The position numbers and the translations under genes were made by a program. The notes under the pieces are model-generated. The model did no database searches, had not been told where the DNA came from, and saw nothing but the letters and a program-made list of their open reading frames with translations. From Mobula hypostoma (taxonomy: Eukaryota): a stretch of DNA of 64,000 nt. This document shows, in pieces, positions 2,717 to 62,834 of this stretch. Location: the NCBI RefSeq assembly GCF_963921235.1, contig NC_086108.1, positions 9,920,001 to 9,984,000 on the forward strand, read 5' to 3'. The number at the start of each line of letters is the position of its first letter. Position 1 is the stretch's first letter.

Positions 2717-5700
2717 CTTAAATGCATCTGTTTTAATGCTAGGAGCATTGTAAGAAAGGTGGATGAGCTTAGAGCATGGATTGATACCTGGAAATATGAT
2801 GCTGTAGCTATTAGTGAAACATGGTTGTAGGAGGGGTGTGATTGGCAACTGAATATTCCAGGATTTCGTTGCTTCAGGTGTGATAGAATAGGAGGGGCAA
2901 GAGGGGGAGGTGTTGCATTGCTTGTCAGAGAAAATATTACAGCGGTGCTTTGGCAGGATAGATTAGAGGGCTTGTCTAGGGAGGCTATTTGGGTTGGATT
3001 GAGGAATGAGAAAGGTGTAGTAATATTTATAGGGGTGTAATATAGACCACCTAATGGGGAGCGAGAATCGGAGAAGCAAACTTGTAAGGAGATAGCAGAC
3101 ATTTGTAGTAAGCACAAGGTTGTGATTGTGGGAGATTTTAATTTTCCACACATAGACTGGGAAGCCCATTCTGTAAAAGTGCTGGATGGTTTGGAGTTTG
3201 TAAAATGTGTGCAAGATAGTTTTTTGCAGCAATACATAGAGGTAGCAACTAGAGAAGGGGCAGTGTTGGATCTCCTGTTAGGGAATGAGACAGGGCAGGT
3301 GATGGAGGTATGTGTTGGGGAGCACTTCGGGTCCAGTGATCACAATACCATTAGTTTCAATATAATTATGGAGAAGGATAGGACTGGACCCAGGGTTGAG
3401 ATTTTTGATTGGAGAAAGGCTAACTTTGAGGAAATGCGAAAGGATTTAGAAGGAGTGGATTGGGACAATTTGTTTTATGGGAAGGATGTAATAGACAAAT
3501 GGAGGTCATTTAAAGGTGAAATTTTGAGGGTACAGAATCTTTATGTTCCTGTTAGGTTGAAAGGAAAGGTTAAAAGTTTGAAAGAGCCATAGTTTTCAAG
3601 GAATATTGGAAATTTGGTTTGGAAAAAGAGAGAGATCTACAATATATATAGGCAGCATGGAGTAAATGAGGTACTCGAGGAATATAAAGAATGTAAAAAG
3701 AATCTTAAGAAAGAGATTAGAAAAGCTAAAAGAAGATATGAGGTTGCTTTGGCAAGTAAGGTGAAAATAAATCCAAAGGGTTTCTATGGTTATATTAGTA
3801 GCAAAAGGACAGTGAGGGATAAAATTGGTCCCTTAGAGAATCAGAGTGGACAGCTATGTGCGGAGCCAAAAGAGATGGGGGAGATTTTGACAATTTCTTT
3901 TCTTCGGTATTCACTAAGGAGAAGGTTATTGAATTCTGTAAGGTAAGGGAAAAAAGTAGGGTAGTTATGGAAACTACGATGATTAAAGAAGAGGAAGTAC
4001 TGGCACTTTTAAGGAATATAAAAGTGGTTAAGTCTCCGGGTCCTGACAGGATATTCCCTAGGACCTTGAGGGAAGTTAGTGTGGAAATAGCAGGGGCTCT
4101 GACAGAAATATTTCAAATGTCATTAGAAACGGGGATGGTGCCGGAGGATTGGCGTATTGCTCATGTGGTTCCATTGTTTAAAAAGGGTTCTAAGAGTTAT
4201 CCTGGCAATTATCGGCCTGTAAGTTTGATGTGAGTGGTGGGTAAATTAATGGAAAGTATTCTTAGAGATGGTATATACAATTATCTGGATAGACAGGGTC
4301 TGATTAGGAACAGTCAACATGGATTTGTACTTGGAAATTCATGTTTGACAAATCTTACTGAATTTTTTGAAGAGGTTACTAGGAAAATTGATGATGGTAA
4401 AGCAGTGGATGTTGTCTATATGGACTTCAGTAAGGCCTTTGACAAGGTTCCACACGGAAGGTTAGCTAGTAAGGTTCAATCGTTAGGTATTAATATTGAA
4501 GTAGTAAAATGGATTCAACAGTGGTTGGATGGGAGATGCCAGAGAGTAGTGGTGGATAACTGTTTGTCAGGTTGGAGGCCAGTGACTAGTGGTGTGCCTC
4601 AGGGATCTGTACTGGGTCCAATGTTGTTTGTCACATTAGTGATCTGGATGATGGGGTGGTAAATTGGATGAGTAAGTATGCAGATGATACTAAGATAGGT
4701 GGCGTTGTGGATAATGAAGTAGGTTTTCAAAGCTTACAGAGAGATTTGGGCCAGTTAGGAGAATGGGCTGAAAGATGGCAGATGGAGTTTAATGCTGATA
4801 AGTGTGAGGTGCTACATTTAGATTAGATTATGAGGACACTCAGTCCTCGTTCATTGTCATTTGGAAATGCATGCATTAAAAAATGACATAATGTTCCTCC
4901 AGAATGATATCACAAGAAACACAGGACAAACCAAGACTAAAACTGACAAAACCAGATAATTATAACAATTAGTTACAACAGTGCAAAGCAATACCATAAT
5001 TTGATAAAGAGCAGACCATGGGCACGGTAAAAAAAAAATCTCAAAGTCCCGATAGCCTCATCATCTCACACAGATGGTAGAAGGGGAAACTCTCCCTGCC
5101 ATGAACCTCCAAGCGCTGCAAACTTGCCGATGCAGCACCATTGGAAGCACCTGACCGCAGCGGACTCTTGAGTCCGTCCAAAAACTTCGAGCCTCCGACC
5201 AGCTCCTCAGACACAGCCTCTCCGAGCACCATCCTCTGCCAAGCGCTTTGACCCCACCCCGGCCGCAAGCAACATGCAAAGCCGAGGACTTGGGGCCTTC
5301 CCTTCCGGAGACTCTGGATCACACAGTAGCAGCAGCAGCGAAGCAGGCATTTCAGAAGTTTCACCAGATGTTCCTCTGTGCTCTCACGTCCACCTCCATC
5401 AAATCAGGATTGTGCACGGCACCCTACTTGACCACCAGAGTGGCTACTGCGAGCTGCGTCACATCGCCACCTTCTCCTCCCTCTTGATAGGACTAATCAA
5501 AACAGGACATACATGGTAAACGGTAGGACATTGAGGAATGCAGTAGAACAGAGGGATCTAGGAATAATGGTGCATAGTTCCCTGAAGGTGGAATCTCATG
5601 TGCATAGGGTGGTGAAGAAAGCTTTTGGTATGCTGACCTTTATAAATCAGAGCGTTGAGTAGAGGAGTTGGGATGTAATGCTAAAATTGTACAAGACATT

Positions 5701-6150: not shown

Positions 6151-6254
6151 TGAGTGCAGGTCAATTTGACTAGGTGAGAGTAAGAGTTCGGCATGGACTA
6201 GAAGGGCTGAGATGGCCTGTTTCCGTGCTGTAATTGTTATATGGTTATATGGTT

Positions 6255-7070
6255 AAATCCCATCTGTTCCCCGCAGAAAAAACAATCACAACAGCATTAA
6301 ATCCTCAACCCTTCCCCGCAGAAAAAAACAGTCACAAGAGCATCAAATCCCCAACTACTTCCATGCAGAAAAATCAGTCACAACCGCATCAAGTTACACC
6401 CCTTCCACGCAGAAGGAGCAGTCACAACAACATCAAATCCCCGAACCCCTTCCACACAGAAAAAAGTCAGAAGAGCATCAAATCACCCATCCTTTCGCAG
6501 CAGAAAAAACAGTCACAACAGCATCAAATCCCTGACCCCTTCCCAGCAGAAATAACAATCAAAACAGCATTCAATCCCAAACACTTCCCGGCAGAAAAAT
6601 CAGTCACAACAGCATCATAACACACCCCGTTCCCCACTTAAAAAACAGTCATAACACCATCAAATCCCACCCACTCTCTGCAGAAAAAACAGTAACAACA
6701 GCATCAAATTCCAACACCTTCCCCGCAGAAAAAGCAGTCACACAAGCAACAAATCTCACCCTGACCCCGAAGAACAAACAGTCACAGTTGTATCAAATCC
6801 CACCCCTTCCCTGCAGGAAAAACAGTCACAATAACATCAAATCCCACCCCTTCCCCACAGAAAAAACAGTCACAATTGCATCAAATCCCACCCCTTTCCT
6901 GCAGAAAAAACGGTCACAACAACATCAAATCCCTCCCTTCCCCCCAGAAAAAACAGTCACAACAGCATCAAATCCCACCCCTTCCCCTCAGAAAAACATC
7001 TGCGACAATAACAATCCCCTAACCCCCAACCTCAAACATGAACAGTGACAGTAGCATCAAAGTCCCCAAC
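6255..7070. repeat. ~44-bp satellite, right part
   Basis: Same unit resumes after the CR1; cagtcac-type motif recurs at 6823, 6867, 6911 and 6954. Confidence 0.95.
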
Positions 7071-8174: not shown

Positions 8175-8905
8175 CTTGAGATTAATTCAGGCAGTTTCAG
8201 GAAAAATAAATACAATGGAATTTATTAAAAAACTCTACATAAAGACTGACGAACAATTGATGTGCTGAAGAAGATAAGTTATGCAAATAACAAATAAATA
8301 ATATTGAGAACATGAGTTGTAGAATCCTTGGAAGTGAGTCTGCAGGATGTGTAATCAGTTCTGAGTTGTGGTGAGTGAAGTTATCCACACTGGTTCAGGA
8401 GCCTGATGGTTGTGGGGTAATAACTGTTCCTGAACCTGGTGGTGTGGGACCTGAGGCTCATTGTGGTGAGTGAAGTTACCCACACTGGTTCAGGAGCCTG
8501 ATGGTTGTGGGGTAATAACTGTTCCTGAACCTGGTGGTGTGGGACCTGAGGCTCATTGTGATGAGTGAAGTTACCCACACTGGTTCAGGAGCCTGATGGT
8601 TGTGGGGTAATAACTGTTCCTGAACCTGGTGGTGTGGGACCTGAGGCTCATTGTGGTGAGTGAAGTTATCCCCCCTGGTTCAGGAGCCTGATGGTTGTGG
8701 GGTAATAACTGTTCCTGAACCTGGTGGTGTGGGACCTGAGGCTCCTGTATCTCCAGTCCGATGGTAGTAGCAAGAAGAGAGCATGGTCTGGATGGTGGGG
8801 TGGGGGGAGGGTGTGGTGGTGTCCTAAGTTATTGGATGCTGCTTTCTTGTGGTAAAGCTGCTTGTAAATGTGCTCTGTAGTAGGGAGGGCTTTGCCTTTT
8901 ATGAC
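8175..8905 (-). mobile_element. Rex1/Babar- or L2-type LINE 3' fragment carrying a tandem array
   Basis: HALFLLLPSDWRYRSLRSHTTRFRNSYYPTTIRLLN C-terminal motif. Confidence 0.75.
8366..8744 (-). repeat. 95-bp tandem array, 4 units
   Basis: tggttcaggagcc recurs at 8391, 8486, 8581 and 8676. Confidence 0.95.
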
Positions 8906-20612: not shown

Positions 20613-21610
20613 ACTCCTGCATCTGCGAGGGGGAGACCAACAGCTTGCTGTTTTGATGTTACCGTCTTCTGCGTTGCTTCTCCAAGCCCCCAACCCGAGG
20701 TCCAACGACTCTCATACTCCATCAAAAGAGGAAGAGAGAAAGGGAGGGAGGGGGGAGAGAGAGGGGGGAGGGGGAGAGAGAGGGGGAGGGGGAGTTGTGG
20801 GGGAGAGAGAAGGGGGAGGGGAGAGGGGGAGGGGGAGTTGTGGGGAGAGAGAGGGGGAGGGGGAGAGGGGGAGGGGGAGTTGTGGGGGAGAGAGAAGGGG
20901 GAGGGGGAGAGGGGGAGGGGGAGTTGTGGGGAGAGAGAGGGGGAGGGGAGAAAGAGGGGGAGGAGAGAGAGGGGGAGAGGGGAGGGGGAGAGGGGAGGGG
21001 GGAGAGAGAGAGGAGAGGGGAGGGGGCAGGGGGAGAGAGAGGGAAGAGGGGGGAAAGGGGAGAGGGGGAGTTGTGGGGGAGAGAGGGGGAGGGGAGAGGG
21101 AAGAGGGGGGAGAGGGGGGAAAGGGGGAGAGGGGAGAGGGGAGGGGGAGAGGGGGAGAGGGGAGGGGGAGAGGGAGGAAGGGGGAGAGAGGGGGAGGGAG
21201 AGAGAGAGAGGGGAAGAGAGGAAGAGGGGGAGAGGGAGAGAGAGAGAGGGGGAAGAGAGAGGGGGGGAGAGCGGAGAGGGGGCAGGGGAGAGAGAGGGAG
21301 AGAGGGGGAGAGAGGAAGAGGGTGAGAGGGAGAGGGGTGCTCAAGTACAGGGGCCTTCCGACAGCAATGTACACCACCGGCTGTCTCGATGTTTCAAACT
21401 CCTATGATGTTTCAGCCAGCGGCATTGGTGAGGAATTGGGACGTCCATGCGGCCACACCCCAAAGGCACAGGTCTTCCAGGCTGCTGTCGAAATTCCAGG
21501 CCACACGGCGATTCCGGGAATGAAAACCCATCACCCGTGGAGAGCTGTAGTCTGACCTACAGCTGTAGATCACAGACTCCAACAGGATCCTAGGCACCTT
21601 GAAATGAAAA
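20255..21610 (-). mobile_element. Non-coding LINE-tail repeat containing microsatellites (related to 60965-62620)
   Basis: Shares gccacctgaaatt...cgcag.catcc.cgaaa and cccaaagaatgaatg with 61018-61085. Confidence 0.55.
20725..21337. repeat. Polypurine G/A-rich low-complexity tract
   Basis: About 610 bp almost entirely G/A, with repeated gggggagttgtgggg; a (GA)n run lies at 20574-20610. Confidence 0.95.
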
Positions 21611-50155: not shown

Positions 50156-52807
50156 ATAACTACACTTTCCCACAATAAATGGATTCAATTTTAAGGACAC
50201 TTCAGCTCATGTTGTTGATAATTATTGCTTATTTATTTATTATTATTATTATTATTACTTTCCTTCTGTATTTGCACACTTTGCTGCCTTCTGCACTCTG
50301 ATTGAGCATTCAGGTTGGGTGGTCTTTCATTGTTTCTGTTATGGTTACTATTCTATAGATTTATTGAGTATGCCTACAAGGAAATGAACCTCAGGGTTGT
50401 ATATGGTAACATATACGTACTTTGATAATAAATTTGCTTTGAAGTTTGAGCTTTGAGTCTGTGTATGTGCATATGTGCTTGTGTGTGTGGGAGAGAGAGA
50501 GAGAGAATGAGAGAGAGAGAGAGAAGGCAGGGAAAGAATAAGAGAGTATTCCTGAAACAGAACAGGAAGATGGAGATGTGACACAAAGTGTTCACAGCTC
50601 CCTCTCATTCTGTCCCCATCACTTCAGCATCTCTCTTCACCTCCTATTCCCTCCTGTCCTTGATTACGGAAGACCAGAGGGAATTCATTCTCTGCAGCTT
50701 GCTCCACACTCTCACCACCCTCTAAACGAAGATGTTTTCCCTCAGGTTTCCCCTTAAATATTTCACCTTTCACCCTAAGCATCTGACCAAGAATTCTATC
50801 TCATCCAACAGTGGGAAAAACCTTTCAAATTCAGCAGCTTTCAAGGAGATCCCCCACCTCAGCTCCTAATTCACATTCTTCACCACCTCCCAATCACGGT
50901 GTCTGTTCTGAGTCCCTCTGGCAATCTGCGTGTTGCTCCAGAAGCCAACATCTGCAGTCACCTATGCCTCCAGTGTCTGCCACTGATGGGGGCACCAATC
51001 TAGCGCACAATATTCCATTGTATCTCATGTAATTCTGCGATTTGGCCCCAAGGTCAACAATAGTTTAGAAAGAATAGAATGGAATAGGATTTTATTGTCA
51101 TCACCCAAGACAACGAGATTGTGGTGCTACCCCTGTCCATGTAAAACAGATGCTTACAACACACGTGATACGACTTAGGTAATTAAAAAGAAAATTCCCA
51201 TATTTACTCGTAACAAGTGACTTCGATAGACCATAATGCTCATAGCCATTGGCAAGCTGGAGTGTAGCATTATTCAGCTGCACAACAGCCCTGGGGAAGA
51301 AGCTGTTTTTCAGTCTAACTGCCTTTGCTAAGATGTTTCTGTATCTCCTACCAAATGGCGGGAGATTGAACAGATAGTGTCTGGGATGGGATGGGATGCA
51401 TCTTTAATAATGTTGCGAGCTGCCGTAGGCATTCAGAGTTGTAGATTGTCTCCAAGTCTGGTAGTTGAGTCTCAGTGATGTGCCGAGCCGTCCTAATCAC
51501 CCGTTGGAGAGCTTTGTGATCTGTCTTGCTGCAGCTAGAGTCCCACACCATCATTCCATATGTCAGTATGCTCTCTGTCACTCAACGGTCAAAGTTAGCC
51601 AGCAATATTTGGGGCAGATGAGCACCCCAGGTGCATCATAGAAATGCTGTGAACTTCATTTCATAGACACCAGAGATTCTGCAGATGCTGGAAATCCAGA
51701 GCAACACACACAAATTGCCGGAAGACTCAGCAGGCCAGGCAGCCTTCAAGGAAAGTCAACATTTTGGGCTGAGACCCTTCACTGGGACAATTTATTTCAG
51801 AGTTTCAGCAACTGCACTATTTTTGTTGTTCAGAGAAATGCAAGTCTTTTCTTGTCCATTGTAACAGTCATGTTTAGGCTTCAGTTTGACTCCACAAGTA
51901 ACACTGGCATCCACATCAATCGTATATAGTTTCTTTGAACTTTGAACTTTAATAGAGTTCTGTTGACTGATCCATTTTGCCTTTAAGCAAGAGGAGGCTT
52001 CCACCTGTGATCCACACAAAGCAACCCCTGCACCTAAAAGAGTTCCAAGAGCCCATTTATTGGAGGGACAGGAACCCATCTCAAGTCCCCTGAATTCCTT
52101 CTGTCTCTGGCACATAGTACCTGAACATATTGCCTTGCCTTCTGCAATAAGGATTGAAGTAGTGATTTCAGCTGAAAGGCAAAAGGTTATGTTCTCAGCC
52201 CTGATGAAGGGTCTCTGCCTGAAACATTGACTGTTTATTCCTCTCAGATGCTGCCTGAGCTGCTGAGCTCCTCCAACATTCTGTGTGTGTTACTGTGGAT
52301 TATCGCGTCTGCAGAATCACCCCTGCTTAGGGTCATATCCTGTATTCTCATGTTCTTCATACTTCATCCTTTACAACGTAAGACACTGCACACTCTCAGT
52401 TCTGATGCAGGTTCTTCACTGGCATGTTGACCATCCCTCTGCCTTCTGAGGTCTTGCTCGACCCATTCAGTGCCTCCTTTAGCTCCAGAATCCAGTATCT
52501 GCAGTGTTTTGTGTCTCCACATGGACCAAGTCCCCTTCACAGACAAATTCCTACTCCCTGGTCTAAAGATAAGGGAGATGGTTATTGACTTTAGGAGAAC
52601 TTGCACCATTGCACATCCTTCTTTACACCGGCGGCACAGCAGTGGATACTGAGTAGTTTCAAACTCCTGGGAGTGCATAATCTCGCACAACCTCTCATGC
52701 TCCCAGAACACCAACTCACCAGCTCCTCTGCTTTCTGAGGAGGCAGGAAAGAGCCGGACTATGCCCATCAATATGCATGTCGTTCTGAAGATGTGTACAG
52801 GGTGTAT

Positions 52808-52990
52808 GGGGTGTCAGGGAGGGGTAGCACCTCTGGTGGGGGAACATGTCGTGTCCTTTTCAAGGCGGTTAGTCCACCTTTGGTCCCCACCTGGCACTCA
52901 GCTCTCACCTGTGGCTCCCCGTAGCTGTTTGCATGCGACAGCGGCCACACCCCGGGCAATGGCTTCGACAAGCCGGCTAAACCAGGTGAG
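52808..52990 (+). ncRNA. Candidate HDV-like self-cleaving ribozyme
   Basis: P1 GGGGTGT/ACACCCC, P2 CTCACCTG/CAGGTGAG, P3 GGC/GCC, P1.1 CC/GG, P4 GGCTT/AAGCC and J4/2 GGCTAA, all in the correct order. Confidence 0.6.
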
Positions 52991-53358
52991 GGTAGCCGAC
53001 GGGTCTCAAACCCTCGGTGAGATAGGGTGATGTCTATCCCAGCATGTGAAGACAGACTCCGGCGGATTGATCGGACGAGACCAATGGAAGGTCCAACGGT
53101 CAGGAAGGTGGTCTCTGCAAGCGTCATGGAACGTGTAGAGCAGGACAAGACACAGAAGACATCCTGGTCATCCACTGCGCCTAGTCCCATCTCCAGCCGT
53201 CTAGACTCTGTCTTGCCACTGGATCCAGATGGGAATTGGGAAGAGAGAGTGAGGCTGACGCTGCGCAACTCTCCCTCACTTAAATCCAAATCACGCGCTA
53301 GTCTCGACACCATCATAATGGTGTTGAGGTCTTCTTCGACGAAGACGATGGACGAACA
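52808..53358 (+). mobile_element. Bipartite non-autonomous RTE derivative (family A)
   Basis: 3' end taatggtgttgaggtcttcttcgacgaagacgatggacgaac matches the RTE tail at 18190-18228; it interrupts an older LINE relic. Confidence 0.8.
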
Positions 53359-54440
53359 TGGAGTAGAGAACATCCTAACAAGCTGCTTCACTGTATGGTA
53401 TGGAAACTGCAGTACAGCGGACAATGGGGAGTCAAAACTGTCCAATGCGATCACCGGCACCAGCCTACCCCTCCATCCGGGACATATATATATAAAACAT
53501 ATTGTTTGCCCCACTCCCATCAGGGAGGAGGCTACATAGCGTCCACGCCAGGGCCACCTGACTGAAACACAGTTACTTTCCCCAAGCAGCAAGGCTGATC
53601 AACACCTCCACCTGCTAACTTCACCACTATCATTTCCTGTCAGTTACCTTAGTACTGCCTAGAGTCACTTTATGGACATACAATAAATCTATGTATATAC
53701 TCTCTCTTATGCATTTATATTTATTATGTTATTATTGTTGTGTTCTTTATCTTTTGTGCTGTATTGGATCTGGAGTAAAATTGTTTCACTCTCCTTTACC
53801 CTTGTGTACAGGAAATGACATAATACTTGCAGCTGTGGTTAATGTTTCATGTCCTCAGTGCTGTTTTGTGTGCTATCTGTTTGCTTTCTGCTGTTTACGT
53901 GATTTCTTTTTAAAATCACTTGTCTGATGATCTTGTTGTGTGGGACTTCTCTTCAGATGGATTCTATGGCGTTTCTTTGTTCTCACTGTCTGCAAGAAAA
54001 CAAATCTCAAGGTTGAATACTGTATAATGCACTTCGAACAACCTTGAACCCTTAAACTTCTATAGGTGGGCAATGGGCATGGTCTGGCTGCATCACAGCC
54101 TGATGGGGAAACACCAATATCCTTGAATGGAAAATCCTACACAAAGTAGTGGATTCAGGCCAGTCTATTACAGCTGAATCCCTCCCAACCACTAAGGACA
54201 TCAACGTGTCGTAGGAAAGCAGCATCCATCATCAGGGATCCCCACCACCCAGATCATACTGTCATCAAGAAGAAGATACAGGAACCTCAGGACTCCCACC
54301 ACAGGTTAAAGAACAGTACTACTCCACAACCATCAGGCTCTTGAACCAAAAGGGAAAATGTTCCCACAACCAATAGGCTCGCCTTCCAGGTCTCTTCATT
54401 TCATGTTCTTGTCATTTATTGCTATTTATTTATTTATGTT

Positions 54441-54996: not shown

Positions 54997-55350
54997 TTGC
55001 ATTTGCACAGTTTGTTGCCTTCTGTACGCTGGTTGAGTGCCCTAGTTGGTCTGGTCTTTCATTGAGGTTGATGGGGAGAGAGAGGCAGTTGTGCATCCTG
55101 AGGCTTGTTTGTCAGGAAGTCCAACATCCAGTTGCTCTGAGTTGTCTTTAGACCAACGAGGACGAGCTTGTTCATCGAAGTCTGTGGGGCAGTGGTGCTG
55201 AATGCCAAGCTGAAATCCAGAAGCAGCATTCTGACATAGCTTTGCCCAGTTATAAGGAGCTTTGCCTCAAGAAAACGGCATCCATCACCAAGGACCCCCA
55301 CCTTCCGGTCATGTTCTCTTCCCCCTGCTGCTATCGGGCAAGAGGTACGG

Positions 55351-55820
55351 GAGCCTCAGGTCCCACACCACCAGGTTCAGGAACAGTTATTACCCCACAA
55401 CCATCAGGCTCCTGAACCAGTGTGGATAACTTCACTCCCCACAATGAGTCTCAGGTCCCATACCACCAGGTTCAGGAACAGTTATCACCCCACAACCATC
55501 AGGCTCCTGAACCAATGTGGATAACTTCACTCACCACAATGAGTCTCAGGTCCCACACCATCAGGTTCAGGAACAGTTATTACCCCACAACCATCAGGCT
55601 CCTGAACCAGTGTGGATAATTTCACTCACCACAATGAGCCTCAGGTCCCACACCACCAGGTTCAGGAACAGCTTATTATCCGACAACCATCAGGCTCCTG
55701 AACCAGTGTGGATAACTTCACTCACTACAATGAGCCTCAGGTCCCACACCACCAGGTTCAGGAACAGTTATTACCCCACAACCATCAGTATCCTGAACCA
55801 ACATGGATGACTTCACTCAC
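55351..55820 (+). repeat. 95-bp tandem array, 5 units, within a LINE 3' fragment (55250-56070)
   Basis: Unit is the reverse complement of the 8366-8744 unit. Confidence 0.95.
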
Positions 55821-56264
55821 TTCAACACTGAACTGATTCCATAACCTATGGACCCACTTTTAAGAACTCTACAACTCATATTCTCAGTATTATTGATTGG
55901 TTGAATTTTCACAGTTTATCTTCTTTTGCACATTGGTAGTTTGTCAGTCTTTGTGTGCCTTTTTTCATTGATTCTATAGTATTTTTGTTCTGCTGTGTAT
56001 GCCCACGAGAAAGAGAATTGCAGGGTAGTATATGGTGACGTTCCTGTACTTTGATAATAAATTTATTTCAGGATTTAAGATTGTTTATTGTCATTTCCAA
56101 TACACAAGAGTAAAGGAGAACAACATAATTGTTACTCTGGATCCAATGTAGCACAAAAAATCACAATAAAAAAACACAATAAATATAATTATTTATGTAT
56201 CTTATACACATGGATTGATCGAATGTCTATAAAGTGACACTAGGCACAGGCGTGTCTGTACATA

Positions 56265-58560: not shown

Positions 58561-61459
58561 GTAAAGAAACATTTAAATTAAGTAGTAAATAGCAAAAAAT
58601 ATTGAGGTAGTGTTCATGGGTTCAGTGTCCATTCCGAAATCCGATGGCAGAGGGGAAGAAGCTGTTCCTGAATCGTCGAGTGTCTTCAGGCTTCAGTTCC
58701 TCCTCCCTGATGACAGCAATGTGAAGTGGGCATGTCCTGGGTGATGGAGGTCCATAATAATGGATGCCACCTTCTTTGGGACATCGCCTTTTGCCGGTAT
58801 CCTCGATCCTCAGACGGCTTGCAGGATTAATGTTGGGAGGAGAGGTTAGTGGGGAGCGATGAATGGACAAGGGAACCACAGAGGAAAGTGGAGAGAGGGG
58901 GAGGTGGCAGGATCCCTTTGGAGACGGTGGAAGTTGCGGAGGATGATGTGTTGGGTACGGAGGCACATGGGGTGCTAGGTAAGGGCAAGAGGAACTCCAT
59001 CGCTGTTATATTAAGGCTTTGCTATTTGAAGATGTCCTCGTTGCTGGGCAGGCTGTTGCCTATGAAGCAGCTGGCTGAGTTTACAACTTTCTGTTGTAAT
59101 ACAGCACAGGAACAGGACTTTTGGCCCACCTCATTCCTGCTGATCGAATCTTCTGTGTAGGTCCATCTAGCTGTGCTGGGACCATAGCCCTCCATACCCC
59201 TCCCATCCATATTCCTATCCAAACTTCTCTTAAATGTTAAAATCGAGCTGATATGCACTACTTGTGCTAGCAGCTCGTTCCACACTCTCACCACCCTCTG
59301 AGTGACGAAGATTCCCCTCATGTTCCCATTAAACTTTTCACCTTTCACCCCTAACCCATGAACTCTGGTTGTCGTCCCACCCAACCTCAGTGGAAAAAGC
59401 CTGCTTGCATTTACCCTATCTATACCCCTCATAATTTTGTACACTTCATTAAGATGTCTCTTCAGTGGTTTTGGAGGTACAACATGATAACAGGCCCTCC
59501 CAGGGATCATGCACCCAATGACCAATTAACTAAATAACCCATAAAATCATAGGATCATAAGACATAGGTGCAGAATTAGGCTATCTGGCCCATCGAGTCT
59601 GCTTCGCCACTTCATGATGGCTGATCCTGGATCCCACTCAATCCCAAACACCTGCCTTCTCACCGTATCCTTTGATGCCCTGACCAATCAGGAAACTATC
59701 AAACTTTCACTTTAAATATACCCACGGACTTGGCCTCTACTGCAGTCCGTGGCAGAGCATTCCACAGATTCACTACTCTCAGGCTGAAAAAAAAAATTCC
59801 TCCTTACCTCTGTTCTAAAAGGTCACCCCTCAGTTTTGAGGCTTTGCTCTCTAGTTCTGGATACCACCACCATAGGAAACATCCTCTCCACATCCAGCCT
59901 ATCTAGTCTCAGTCCTGCACTCGAGCCATCTCCCATCCTGGCACTCCTTCTCTGCCAGCTCTCCCGCACCCCTCCCGCGGTGCTCCACCCTCGTCATTCC
60001 CAACATCTCTGCTCCCGCCAGATTTACAAAGTCACCCTCGGCTCCTCATTGACGAATTCAGTACTGTGCAAAAGTCTCAGACACCCAAGCTGTATATGTA
60101 CATGCCTAGACTTTTGCAATTTAATCCCCTTCTGAACTACATGCTAATTTCTGAATCTATGCTAAGTGAACTATATGCTAATATTTGAAGCAATGAGGAA
60201 TTATTACTTCAGAACCATCACAGCAAGAAACAACAATGTTCATAAATCTCCTGAAAACAATATAGTACCTTCCATATTTCAAGGTTGGTTCTTGACTATT
60301 GTTTTATTGAAGGTTTTCTCCCTACCCCACTACAGTATAAAAAATAGCATAGGGTGCAGAATACCCATCAGATGACACTGCACAATGGGGTAAGCAGGCT
60401 ATTGTCTCTCACAAGTTAGCTCTGTCACCTTGTGTTTCAGAATGAGATTTAATATCACTGGCATGCTCTTTCCCGTCCGTGTGCAGCCTTCCTCCAGGTG
60501 CCCAGGTTTTCTCCCACAATCCAAAGGCATGCTGGTGAGAAGGTTAATTGGTCAGTGTAAATTGTCCCCTGATTAGGCTGGGGTTAAATTGGTGGGAGAA
60601 GCTGGAAGAGCTGGGAGATCCTGTTCCACACCATATCTCTCAATAATGTGAAAAAGCTGTAATGACTTCCATTTATAACGCACCAGTGTGGAAATGTAAT
60701 GAAAACACAGCAGGACAGCTGCACCCAGCAAACTCTCATTTGCAGCTATGAAATAAATATACCCTCTGCACGGTTGATGGATAAGTGTTAGACCAGAACC
60801 CCGGGGAAATTGGCACCATTGGCGCACTTTCCAGACCGGTGCATTATTCATTTTACTTTCTTTTGATTGAGATACAGTGTGGAATAGGCCCTTCCAGACC
60901 TCTGAGCTGCACAGCAGCCCACCAATTTAACCTCAGCTTAATCATGGGATAATTTATAATGACCAAAAGCTCAATGGTTCAACAGTTTCATTTCATACCA
61001 GAGAATGTATACAATATGCCACCTGAAATTTTCACTCTCCGCAGACATCCTCGAAAACAGAAGAAAACCCCCCAAAGAATGAATGGCAGGAAAGAGACAT
61101 GAACCCTAAAACCCCTTTCTCCTCCCATGCACAAGCAGATTCAACATTCCCCCCTCTCCCTCCCCCTCCCCCCACTTATTCCAGCATAATGCATCAGCAT
61201 TCCCACCTGCACACTATGCGAGCAACAGCAAAGCCCCCGAAGAGAGACCATGGTCTACAGTCCATCAAAAACTAACTGTTCATACCAACATTTCAACGTC
61301 CCACAGGCTCTCCCTCTCACCAACAAGGGAGAGAACAGGTATCGCTCCTTCCACAGCAAAAGGGGAGACAACGGTCGCTATTTCACTGTTACAGTCAGTC
61401 TGAAGCGTTGCTTTTTTATTTTGAGATCTCTGACTTGAGAATTAGCAAATCAATGACCA

Positions 61460-62607
61460 AGTGCAGAGCCCTCTGCAAGCCCCTCTCGCTGAACTCGACG
61501 TTCCGAGTGCAGAGCCCTCTGCAAGCCCCTCTCGCTGAACTCGACGTTCCGAGTGTAGGGCCCTCTGCAAGCCCCTCTCCCTGAACTCGACGTTCCGAGT
61601 ACAGGGCCCTCTGCAAGCCCCTCTCGCTGAACTCGACGTTCCGAGTGTAGGGCCCTCTGCAAGCCCCTCTCGCTGAACTCGACGTCCCGAGTACAGGGCC
61701 CTCTGCAATCCACTCTCGCTGAACTCGACGTTCCGAGTACAGGGCCCTCTGCAAGCCCCTCTCGCTGAACTCGACGTTCCGAGTGCAGGGCCCTCTGCAA
61801 TCCACTCTCGCTGAACTCGACGTTCCGAGTGTAGGGCCCTCTGCAAGCCCCTCTCGCTGAACTCGACGTCCCGAGTACAGGGCCCTCTGCAAGCCCCTCT
61901 CGCTGAACTCGACGTCCCGAGTACAGGGCCCTCTGCAATCCACTCTCGCTGAACTCGACGTTCCGAGTGCAGGGCCCTCTGCAATCCACTCTCGCTGAAC
62001 TCGACGTTCCGAGTGCAGGGCCCTCTGCAAGCCCCTCTCGCTGAACTCGACGTTCCGAGTACAGGGCCCTCTGCAATCCACTCTCGCTGAACTCGACGTT
62101 CCGAGTACAGGGCCCTCTGCAAGCCCCTCTCGCTGAACTCGACGTTCCGAGTACAGGGCCCTCTGCAATCCACTCTCGCTGAACTCGACGTTCCGAGTGC
62201 AGGGCCCTCTGCAAGCCCCTCTCGCTGAACTCGACGTTCCGAGTACAGGGCCCTCTGCAATCCACTCTCGCTGAACTCGACGTTCCGAGTGCAGGGCCCT
62301 CTGCAAGCCCCTCTCGCTGAACTCGACGTTCCGAGTGCAGGGCCCTCTGCAAGCCCCTCTCGCTGAACTCGACGTTCCGAGGGCAGGGCCCTCTGCAAGC
62401 CCCTCTCGCTGAACTCGACGTTCCGAGTGCAGGGCCCTCTGCAATCCACTCTCGCTGAACTCGACGTTCCGAGTGCAGGGCCCTCTGCAAGCCCCTCTCG
62501 CTGAACTCGATGTTCCGAGTGCAGGGCCCTCTGCAATCCACTCTCGCTGAACTCGACGTTCCGAGTGCAGGGCCCTATGCAAGCCCCTCTCCCTGAACTC
62601 GACGTTC
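61460..62607. repeat. 46-bp CpG-rich minisatellite, ~25 units
   Basis: Unit gagtgcagggccctctgcaagcccctctcgctgaactcgacgttcc; period 46 (ttcc at 61501 and 61547). Confidence 0.97.
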
Positions 62608-62834
62608 TGGATCCCACTACGCTTCAGTATGTGACAGTGGTGAGAATGAACCTACTAACCGGTATGAACCCGGAGCACCCGGAGGAAACCCACGTGCTCA
62701 CAGACAGGAAGGAACGTATAAGCTTGCTTAGAGAGAGCACTGGAATTGAACTCTGAAAGATGTCAGCCTTGACATGGCATCACTCCCTCTGTAACACACT
62801 GCAATGTAGGCTTGGATCTGTCTAAAGCGACCGA

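Follow-up and report, generated by a model that had tools for sequence, protein, structure and literature searches.

The F1 retroposon and the fold at its head

The window analyzed in this study is a 64,000-nt stretch of DNA from Mobula hypostoma (contig NC_086108.1, positions 9,920,001 to 9,984,000), whose genome assembly amounts to 3.48 Gb. Positions 52800 to 53358 of the window hold, on the plus strand, a copy of a 559-bp non-autonomous retroposon, here called family F1, which was delimited by BLAST comparison with two samples of genomic copies (29 and 30 loci). The head of this element has the organization of an HDV-like ribozyme (HDV, hepatitis delta virus). With a probability of roughly 0.75, we regard it as truly belonging to the lineage of HDV-like ribozymes found at the 5′ ends of a group of RTE-like long interspersed nuclear elements (LINEs), and self-cleavage is proposed for it. 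All features of the element described below lie on the plus strand, and coordinates are those of the window unless otherwise stated.

An earlier note on this DNA, made from the sequence alone, had described an HDV-like fold at this place, and on reading positions 52500 to 53700 every segment that it listed was recovered base for base. Its P1 5′ strand, GGGGTGT, occupies positions 52808 to 52814. The P2 5′ strand, CTCACCTG (52904 to 52911), is followed by the P3 5′ strand GGC (52913 to 52915), L3, the P3 3′ strand GCC (52944 to 52946), and the P1 3′ strand ACACCCC (52947 to 52953). The next stretch (52954 to 52960), which starts GGGCAA (52954 to 52959), comprises the GG of P1.1 (52954 and 52955) and a variable joiner. 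It leads to the P4 hairpin GGCTT-CGAC-AAGCC (52961 to 52974), to J4/2, GGCTAAAC (52975 to 52982), which begins GGCTAA (52975 to 52980) and contains the putative catalytic C52977, and to the P2 3′ strand, CAGGTGAG (52983 to 52990). The resulting strand order, P1-P2-P3-L3-P3′-P1′-(P1.1)-P4-J4/2-P2′, is that of the HDV nested double pseudoknot. All helices consist of standard pairs, both in the window copy with the second of two tandem P1 units and in L020, a genomic copy starting with four G's, with the first unit (see below).

L3 belongs to the catalytic center of the delta fold, and the searches by which the family was defined treat its length as fixed. At this site P3, a canonical L3 heptamer (TCCCCGT, 52916 to 52922; UCCCCGU in the RNA), and P1.1 are all present, with C52917 and C52918 pairing with G52955 and G52954, respectively. 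The heptamer is split from the P3 3′ strand by 21 further nucleotides (52923 to 52943), namely, an A, a hairpin (52924 to 52928 with 52938 to 52942, GCTGT/ACAGC, with a 9-nt loop), and a G, giving a total of 28 nt.

A relaxed HDV descriptor, written after the site had been seen, specified a P1 of 7 bp with G as its first base and GG following it, a J1/2 no longer than ∼190 nt, a P2 of at least 6 bp, a 3-bp Watson-Crick P3, an L3 of 6 to 30 nt in which CC stands close to the start, a P4 of at least 4 bp, and a C in J4/2. The site was its sole match on both strands of the 64-kb window. When the 211-nt head was dinucleotide-shuffled 20,000 times, 8 of the shuffled sequences matched the descriptor; in 25 block-shuffled windows (one strand each), it matched one site. 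The HDV-like fold has thus stood up: its pairings are present, they are rare by chance, and a canonical homologue exists in a LINE relative, as described below.

Position of P1 and 5′ ends of the copies

The family begins GGGGTGTAT-GGGGTGTCAGG, that is, with two units in tandem, either of which can pair with ACACCCC. Unit 1, which reads GGGTGT in the window copy (52800 to 52805) and GGGGTGT in the family, is a candidate for the P1 5′ strand, pairing with 52947 to 52953. Unit 2, GGGGTGTCAGG (52808 to 52818), is the P1 5′ strand of the earlier note, and in the minimum free energy (MFE) fold its positions 52809 to 52818 form the 5′ half of a helix, Ha.

In the first sample, 23 of the 29 loci started no more than 2 nt from position 52800, one started at 52805, and none at 52808; the other five carried an extra 8- to 9-nt unit ahead of 52800. 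The second sample of 30 loci (90 to 97% identity to the majority sequence) was picked via the middle of the element and hence without bias to the head. Here the copies started at consensus position 1 in 19 cases, at positions 2 to 3 in 4, at position 6 in 3, and at positions 9, 12, 16, and 126 once each. Genome-wide, an exact 33-mer was found 695 times with four G's and 116 times with another base ahead of GGG, which gives 811 occurrences with unit 1 intact. Among 57 located heads, four G's were present in 23, three in 5, two in 3, and five in 1, and 25 had other changes, several of the latter also having four G's. In copies whose target site was resolved, the fourth G lay outside the duplication. 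Intact unit-2 24-mers without the T at −3 numbered 124 in the genome, and about two-thirds of the 100 listed kept the "AT" of unit 1. The counts of four-G starts and the few starts at unit 2 alone therefore argue that the copied RNA begins at unit 1, not at G52808. Unit 1 is thus the likely P1 5′ strand, and the predicted cut lies 5′ of its first G, which is the element's 5′ end. The earlier placement of the P1 5′ strand at 52808 to 52814, with a cut 5′ of G52808, has to be given up for the family, since copies start one unit earlier, at GGGGTGTAT; in family terms, P1 and the predicted cut move one unit (9 nt) upstream.

Unit 1 of the four-G copy L020 forms seven standard pairs with ACACCCC. 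The window copy lacks the family's first G, and because position 52799 is an A, its unit-1 P1 has six pairs, with C52953 left unpaired. Therefore, in the window copy alone, a perfect 7-bp P1 is formed by unit 2 only.

The stretch assigned to J1/2 in the earlier note folds, in the MFE prediction, as a closed stem-loop whose closing helix Ha pairs 52809 to 52818 with 52890 to 52899. Its inner part (52819 to 52889) is structured, as indicated by compensatory pairs at the family level: in the head alignment described below, 13 rows have GC and 12 have AU at columns 50/88, and 13 have AU and 11 have GC at columns 56/83. The domain has a folding energy of −42.7 kcal/mol with Ha, compared to −32.3 kcal/mol when its first 7 nt are kept free. 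The sister family F2 (see below) keeps Ha, since the C inserted there finds its partner in T52892G, with G52894A as a further change. Thus, what had been taken for an 89-nt linker is a closed domain, with Ha built from the very strand formerly assigned to P1.

These data bear directly on an arrangement in which P1 is 52808 to 52814, the cut falls 5′ of G52808, and J1/2 is an 89-nt linker. Such an arrangement would have a perfect 7-bp P1, the only perfect one in copies without the first G, and both units are conserved in F1 and F2. However, it predicts starts at 52808, which were found at 0 of the 29 loci of the first sample and at 1 of the 30 loci of the second (consensus position 9), and the 124 unit-2 24-mers without the T at −3 contrast with the 811 occurrences of an intact unit 1. 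Moreover, freeing unit 2 would cost the J1/2 domain ∼10 kcal/mol, and Ha is kept in F2 by compensating changes. We therefore consider this arrangement decidedly improbable.

Three of the 57 copies (L007, L012, and L015) carried one or two additional GTGTATGGG units at the 5′ end, as if the P1 unit can be re-copied there.

One RNA-seq contig from another organism (X20; 253 nt, depth of 11.5, ∼89% alike) covered positions 52800 to 53027, with 23 other letters and three gaps relative to the element. Eighteen loose letters preceded position 52800, the last one being a G; the other 17 we take to be the end of the Illumina read-1 adapter. This contig weakly hints at molecules that end at the four-G start, which fits cleavage and transcription start alike. 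Two further runs (X17 and X15) were only guessed to be RNA, and no depth or end was drawn from them.

Sister family F2 and variation within the genome

A second form of the element, with G52961C and C52974G, first became visible in contigs of two other organisms, and its pattern was found at 677 places in the M. hypostoma genome. This form, F2, is an older sister family, homologous to F1 over head and body and with a related tail (…CGATGGACAACCACC). Thirteen F1 heads and 19 F2 heads were aligned (32 rows), the F2 loci having been picked with a pattern covering J4/2 and P4. The HDV core was defined as both strands of P1, P2, and P3, the UCC and the last G of L3, the GG of P1.1, and J4/2. Between the majority sequences of the two families, 0 of the 50 core positions differed, compared to 28 of the 142 head positions beyond the core (Fisher p = 1.2e-4).

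The differences sit where HDV-like ribozymes may vary, namely, in mid-L3, the joiner, P4, and J1/2. Thus, positions 52919 and 52920 read CC in F1 and AA in F2, with the TCC of L3 invariant. The joiner after P1.1 is GCAAT or GCAAC in F1 and TACAC in F2. The first P4 pair is G-C in F1 and C-G in F2 (CG in 17 rows and GC in 9), and the fourth is U-A in F1 and U-G in F2. For their part, the P2 5′ strand and J4/2 were invariant between the families, C52977 being kept also in the X20 contig, and the 21-nt L3 insertion was present in F1, in F2, and in a contig of organism H. Over the whole structure, 88.0% of the alignment cells paired, versus 86.6 ± 0.3% in shuffled alignments (reached by 0 of 500) and 36 to 47% when the partners were slid.

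Canonical ribozymes in relatives of the partner LINE

A covariance model of the nested core, R1 (P2, P3, the L3 hairpin, and P4, without P1), was built from 19 F1 and F2 copies and searched over 16 metagenome loci holding a LINE N terminus plus upstream DNA. It found one place upstream of a LINE-relative open reading frame (ORF), with 18.2 bits and a rough E value of 0.02. The order at this locus (L105) is P2, GCC, TCCCCGC, GGC, ACACCAT, GG, TAACT, GGCAG-loop-CTGCC, AGGCTGAA, and P2′. The relaxed descriptor, which is blind to homology, found the same site; its P1 strand, GTGGTGT, lies 141 nt upstream and is repeated in tandem (GTGGT-GTGGTGT), which gives two registers offset by 5 nt. The descriptor further matched a compact ribozyme at both ends of another contig (L147), with GGGGTGC, a 2-nt J1/2, the L3 TCCCCGT, and the J4/2 GCGAA. 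There were no other descriptor matches in 207,529 nt, both strands included.

In the three lineages (the element, L105, and L147), all helices consist of standard pairs. With respect to the element, changes on both sides of a pair were found at one of the seven pairs of P1 and one of the three pairs of P3 in both L105 and L147, the middle pair of P3 being flipped from G-C to C-G in each. In P2 such changes affected seven of eight pairs in L105 and six of six in L147, and in P4, compared for L105, two of five (pairs 4 and 5). The pairs were read by coordinates, as a MAFFT alignment of four ribozyme lineages misplaced P3 and L3. The equivalent of the J4/2 C lies in GGCTGAA in L105 and in GCGAA in L147. 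The P1 of L105 is its only helix outside R1. Compensatory changes in P1 to P4, for which the earlier note had proposed to test, were present across the three lineages, the relatives having been found with structure-aware tools; within the genome, compensatory changes were restricted to P4 and J1/2, and P1 to P3 were invariant.

Downstream of the L105 ribozyme, positions 902 to 1161 match consensus positions 259 to 513 of the element with 72% identity; the heads of both are therefore collinear. Since the L3 of L105 and L147 is the 7-nt TCCCCGC or TCCCCGT, the L3 of the element can be resolved into a canonical heptamer and a 21-nt hairpin insertion. The description of L3 as carrying an extra hairpin is thereby borne out, the ribozymes of the LINE relatives having the UCCCCGY heptamer alone.

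In L147, a 1,002-nt metagenome contig, two near-identical ribozymes face outward (positions 19 to 110 on the minus strand and 892 to 983 on the plus strand), with a reverse transcriptase fragment between them; the similarity between the two copies sets in precisely at the first G of P1.

The partner LINE

Two chimeric database ORFs (P0007 and P0002) led to proteins of 1,050 to 1,100 amino acids with endonuclease and reverse transcriptase on contigs of ∼4 kb. In both ORFs repeat-like residues are joined to an endonuclease piece, and only the endonuclease matches the LINE; they were discarded except as a pointer to it. The M. hypostoma genome contains many full-length copies of this LINE, which gave 43 scored matches, with 63 to 68% identity over residues 4 to 1066 and open frames of up to ∼1,130 amino acids. 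The LINE is ∼4 kb long and has a single ORF of ∼1,070 to 1,130 amino acids with the Exo_endo_phos and RVT_1 domains, a 3′ untranslated region (UTR) of ∼50 nt, and a trinucleotide tail. We take a single-ORF, ∼4-kb LINE with a short 3′ UTR and a trinucleotide tail to fit the description of RTE. By these features, the partner looks RTE-like.

Positions 53030 to 53308 form the body of the element, which is homologous to the inner part of the partner's 5′ UTR; consensus positions 231 to 509 match positions 302 to 583 of a LINE 5′ UTR (L091) with 76% identity over 279 nt (E of 1e-53). The 3′ module (53303 to 53358) contains two hairpins, read from the sequence (53303 to 53313 with 53318 to 53328, and 53329 to 53334 with 53341 to 53346), and the terminal GATGGACGAACA (53347 to 53358). 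It is likely the recognition end for the LINE reverse transcriptase. One LINE copy ends …CGAAGGACGAACA(ACA)n ∼50 nt past the stop codon, as do the metagenome relatives at their 3′ ends. Consensus positions 534 to 559 match a LINE 3′ end (L092, 189 to 214) with 81% identity over a short stretch of 26 nt, including an identical GGACGAACA(ACA)n end. As it matches both the 5′ UTR and the 3′ end of the LINE, the element reads as a LINE 5′ UTR joined to a LINE 3′ end. Judged from these alignments, it is an internal-deletion derivative made of the first ∼510 nt of the 5′ UTR, the ∼45-nt 3′ end, and (ACA)n. The earlier description as a non-coding RTE derivative thus holds as far as a non-coding deletion derivative of a LINE is concerned, the LINE being RTE-like in its features.

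Seven genomic LINE 5′ regions had a different, G+C-rich start. In L091 and L093 to L100, a G+C-rich stretch of ∼300 nt or more (GATGCCRCCTCTTGGTGAG…) stands in place of the ribozyme head, and in L094 this stretch has undergone a 5′ inversion. A relaxed 6/5 match in a LINE 5′ copy occurred in that single copy only and was judged to be due to chance. Relatives of the partner protein (P0015 to P0149; 55 to 70% identity) are named from tapeworms, amphioxus, frog, and sea slugs and are found on hundreds of ∼4-kb contigs, a breadth that suggests horizontal spread or very slow change.

Abundance and surroundings of the element

A 28-nt pattern over P4 and J4/2 located F1 at 3,558 places in the genome with no more than two mismatches, the reversed control giving 0. 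A 301-nt query yielded 40 scored matches out of 1,929 first-look candidates, with 95 to 100% identity throughout, and a tail query yielded 40 full-length matches. Other F1 copies are flanked by target-site duplications of 7 to 13 bp and (ACA)n or (CCAA)n tails; no clear duplication was seen on reading the flanks of the window copy. On either side of that copy (52560 to 52799 and 53359 to 53640), the decayed reading frame of an older LINE runs exactly across the insertion; we take it to be an old L2-like LINE, from motifs recognized by eye (…VIDFRR… upstream and …VWYGNC… downstream).

Right after the ribozyme lies a further hairpin, CCGA(C)GGGT/ACCCTCGG (52996 to 53017). Changes on both sides were found in some rows at five of its eight pairs, and at the family level A52999G accompanies the loss of T53014. 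No tRNA, 5S, or 7SL likeness was detected by Rfam in positions 52700 to 53100 at an E value of ≤10. The element therefore has no head derived from RNA polymerase III (Pol III) transcripts and is not a classical short interspersed nuclear element (SINE).

The frames of the element (the plus frame from 53030 and the minus frame) matched no Pfam family. Against 1.84 billion representatives they gave 2 and then 14 short ORF-like matches only, all of them translations of repeat copies. On the minus strand, one frame stays open across the whole 559 nt (52801 to 53358) in the majority sequence and most of the young copies; it was dropped as a coding lead, 29 of 2,000 dinucleotide shuffles being likewise open.

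At least seven other organisms (runs X1 to X18) hold half or more of the sampled 31-mers of the element, which therefore belongs to a young family common to several species and nearly unchanged among them.

Elsewhere in the window, a tandem array of 24 copies of a 46-nt unit spans 61365 to 62722, and a tandem ∼45-nt unit occurs in two blocks (1011 to 2087 and 6246 to 7041). A 95-nt tandem unit forms two inverted blocks 46 kb apart (8271 to 8839 and 55292 to 55902), and a G/A-rich low-complexity run occupies 20729 to 21200.

Proposed mechanism and alternatives

In the mechanism that we propose, a copy of the element would be transcribed as a segment of a longer RNA, from the host or by read-through. 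P1 would form between the first GGGGTGT unit and ACACCCC, the second unit would be locked in the stem closing J1/2, and P2, P3, P1.1, and P4 would complete the double pseudoknot. C52977 in J4/2 would then catalyze the cut on the 5′ side of the first G, so that the released RNA and the element would have exactly the same 5′ end. After recognizing the stem-loops at the 3′ end together with GACGAACA and the (ACA)n tail, the LINE reverse transcriptase would copy the RNA into a new site with target-site duplication. We infer activity from the conservation of the core, from the coincidence to the base of the first G of P1 with the 5′ ends of the copies, and from the youth and number of these copies. 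The element would be promoter-less and would cut itself out of read-through transcripts, as the earlier note had suggested.

A number of observations weigh against a ribozyme, and above all an active one, at this site. In the Rfam scan of the window, no family matched at the gathering score or at an E value of ≤10, as expected from the 98-nt J1/2 and the L3 insertion, and the 16 LINE-relative loci gave no HDV-type match at an E value of ≤0.1. The plain MFE of 52808 to 52990, a measure that is not informative for pseudoknots, was ordinary (z = −0.97; 34 of 200 shuffles folded as well). These values, together with a descriptor written post hoc, are what a chance resemblance in a G+C-rich repeat would show. 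Against such a coincidence stand the rates in shuffled sequences, the canonical homologues in LINE relatives, and the conservation of the core relative to the periphery, and we regard it as extremely improbable.

The support from variation has its own limits. Changes on both sides were seen at 14 pairs of the 32-row alignment, versus 11.2 in shuffles, 72 of 500 of which reached that number. P1, P2, and P3, showing no variation between F1 and F2, are neither supported nor refuted within the genome. Of the relatives, L105, L106, and L108 are one locus, and both L105 and L147 were found by tools that presuppose pairings (P2, P3, and P4 in R1, all of them in the descriptor), so that their being fully paired is partly by construction. 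An uninserted form with a canonical L3 was not found in the genome with the narrow pattern used. In the comparison of the head with the genomic LINE 5′ end, the best local score (23) was below the shuffle mean (26), and neither R1 nor the descriptor found a core in the seven sampled genomic LINE 5′ regions. As to the 5′ end, that of X20 comes from a single contig of a single study. Reverse transcription of the cap also gives one extra 5′ G, as seen in work on L1, and a transcription start at the first-G base is possibly compatible with the extra 5′ G of the copies. Finally, an insertion beside the catalytic L3 could inactivate the fold.

The last two points would fit a relic, that is, a head that derives from a LINE ribozyme whose catalysis was killed by the L3 insertion, the 5′ end of the copies being the start from an internal promoter at GGGGTGTAT. 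The conserved head would then serve as a promoter, reverse transcriptase-binding, or stability element. The extra G at the 5′ junction fits a cap, the insertion adjoins the active-site loop, Rfam is silent, and two blocks outside the core (52815 to 52838 and 52875 to 52891) show 0 differences between F1 and F2. A relic does not, however, account for the identity of all 50 core positions (among them GG, the UCC of L3, and the J4/2 C) while 28 of 142 other head positions differ, nor for a 5′ end that falls precisely on the first nucleotide of a 7-bp P1. In addition, nothing in the head resembles tRNA, 5S, or 7SL so as to suggest a Pol III start, and the covariation of the box-B-like P4 is that of an RNA. 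A relic is thus unlikely, and we prefer a ribozyme of the HDV-like lineage.

Tentatively, it seems quite possible that the 21-nt hairpin between L3 and P3 and the duplicated P1 strand, with its second copy locked in the J1/2 stem, define an active, previously undescribed structural subclass of HDV-like ribozymes, which thousands of retroposon copies would carry in a number of related animal genomes. Such a subclass would provide self-cutting sites in many host transcripts, its two P1 registers could switch cutting, and standard descriptors and Rfam models would be blind to it. Activity of the insertion variant would mean that a helix can be added next to L3 and that such ribozymes are undercounted in current surveys; inactivity would make the element one more ribozyme-derived repeat. 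The head survives in a short derivative while the sampled partner LINEs carry another, G+C-rich 5′ end, and this bears on how promoter-less retroposons gain defined 5′ ends. The ∼4,000 copies could place self-cleavage sites in many host transcripts.

Comparison with known systems

HDV-like ribozymes occur at the 5′ ends of R2, R4/Dong, baggins, L1Tc, and RTE (Ruminski et al. 2011, cited in PMC6765202 and PMC7761336), which they process, and also process the 5′ ends of some non-autonomous derivatives (PMC6765202, PMC7761336, and PMC3774820). R2 is described as being cut out of rRNA cotranscripts by such ribozymes, with J1/2 loops of 216 to 498 nt in silkmoth R2 (PMC3774820), and 5′ processing and translation initiation are named as proposed roles (PMC7761336). 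NARTc, derived from L1Tc, and the R2 SIDEs are presented as non-autonomous deletion derivatives that keep the 5′ ribozyme of the parent (PMC3383444 and PMC3414825).

The head of F1 shares with LINE-borne HDV-like ribozymes the nested double pseudoknot, a 7-bp P1 with a first G that is also the element's first base, a 3-bp P3, an L3 starting U-C-C that with GG gives a 2-bp P1.1, and the C of J4/2. J1/2 and P4 are variable in both, and a long J1/2 is normal. Unlike those ribozymes, the element has an L3 that reaches 28 nt with its insertion, versus 7 nt, and a P1 5′ strand that is present twice in tandem, the second built into the J1/2 stem; it is also missed by the Rfam models. In the literature searched, by titles and abstracts, neither such an L3 insertion nor such an element in a large animal genome was found.

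Like NARTc and the R2 SIDEs, the element is short and non-coding, joins a head ribozyme to the partner's 3′ end, and has no Pol III-type head. It differs from them in its host, an animal with a 3.48-Gb genome, in its RTE-like partner, and in its numbers (∼3,600 near-intact F1 cores plus 677 F2), and in that the partner copies sampled in the same genome have no ribozyme head.

The closest likeness is to the ribozymes of the LINE relatives. With L105 and L147 the element has in common the L3 heptamer UCCCCGY, P3, GG, and the ACACC of the P1 3′ strand, and with L105 also a body that is collinear downstream and a P1 strand in tandem. The first P1 pair is G-C in the element and G-U in L105 and L147, and the 21-nt insertion is present in the element only. 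In L147, J1/2 is 2 nt long and J4/2 is the classic GCGAA.

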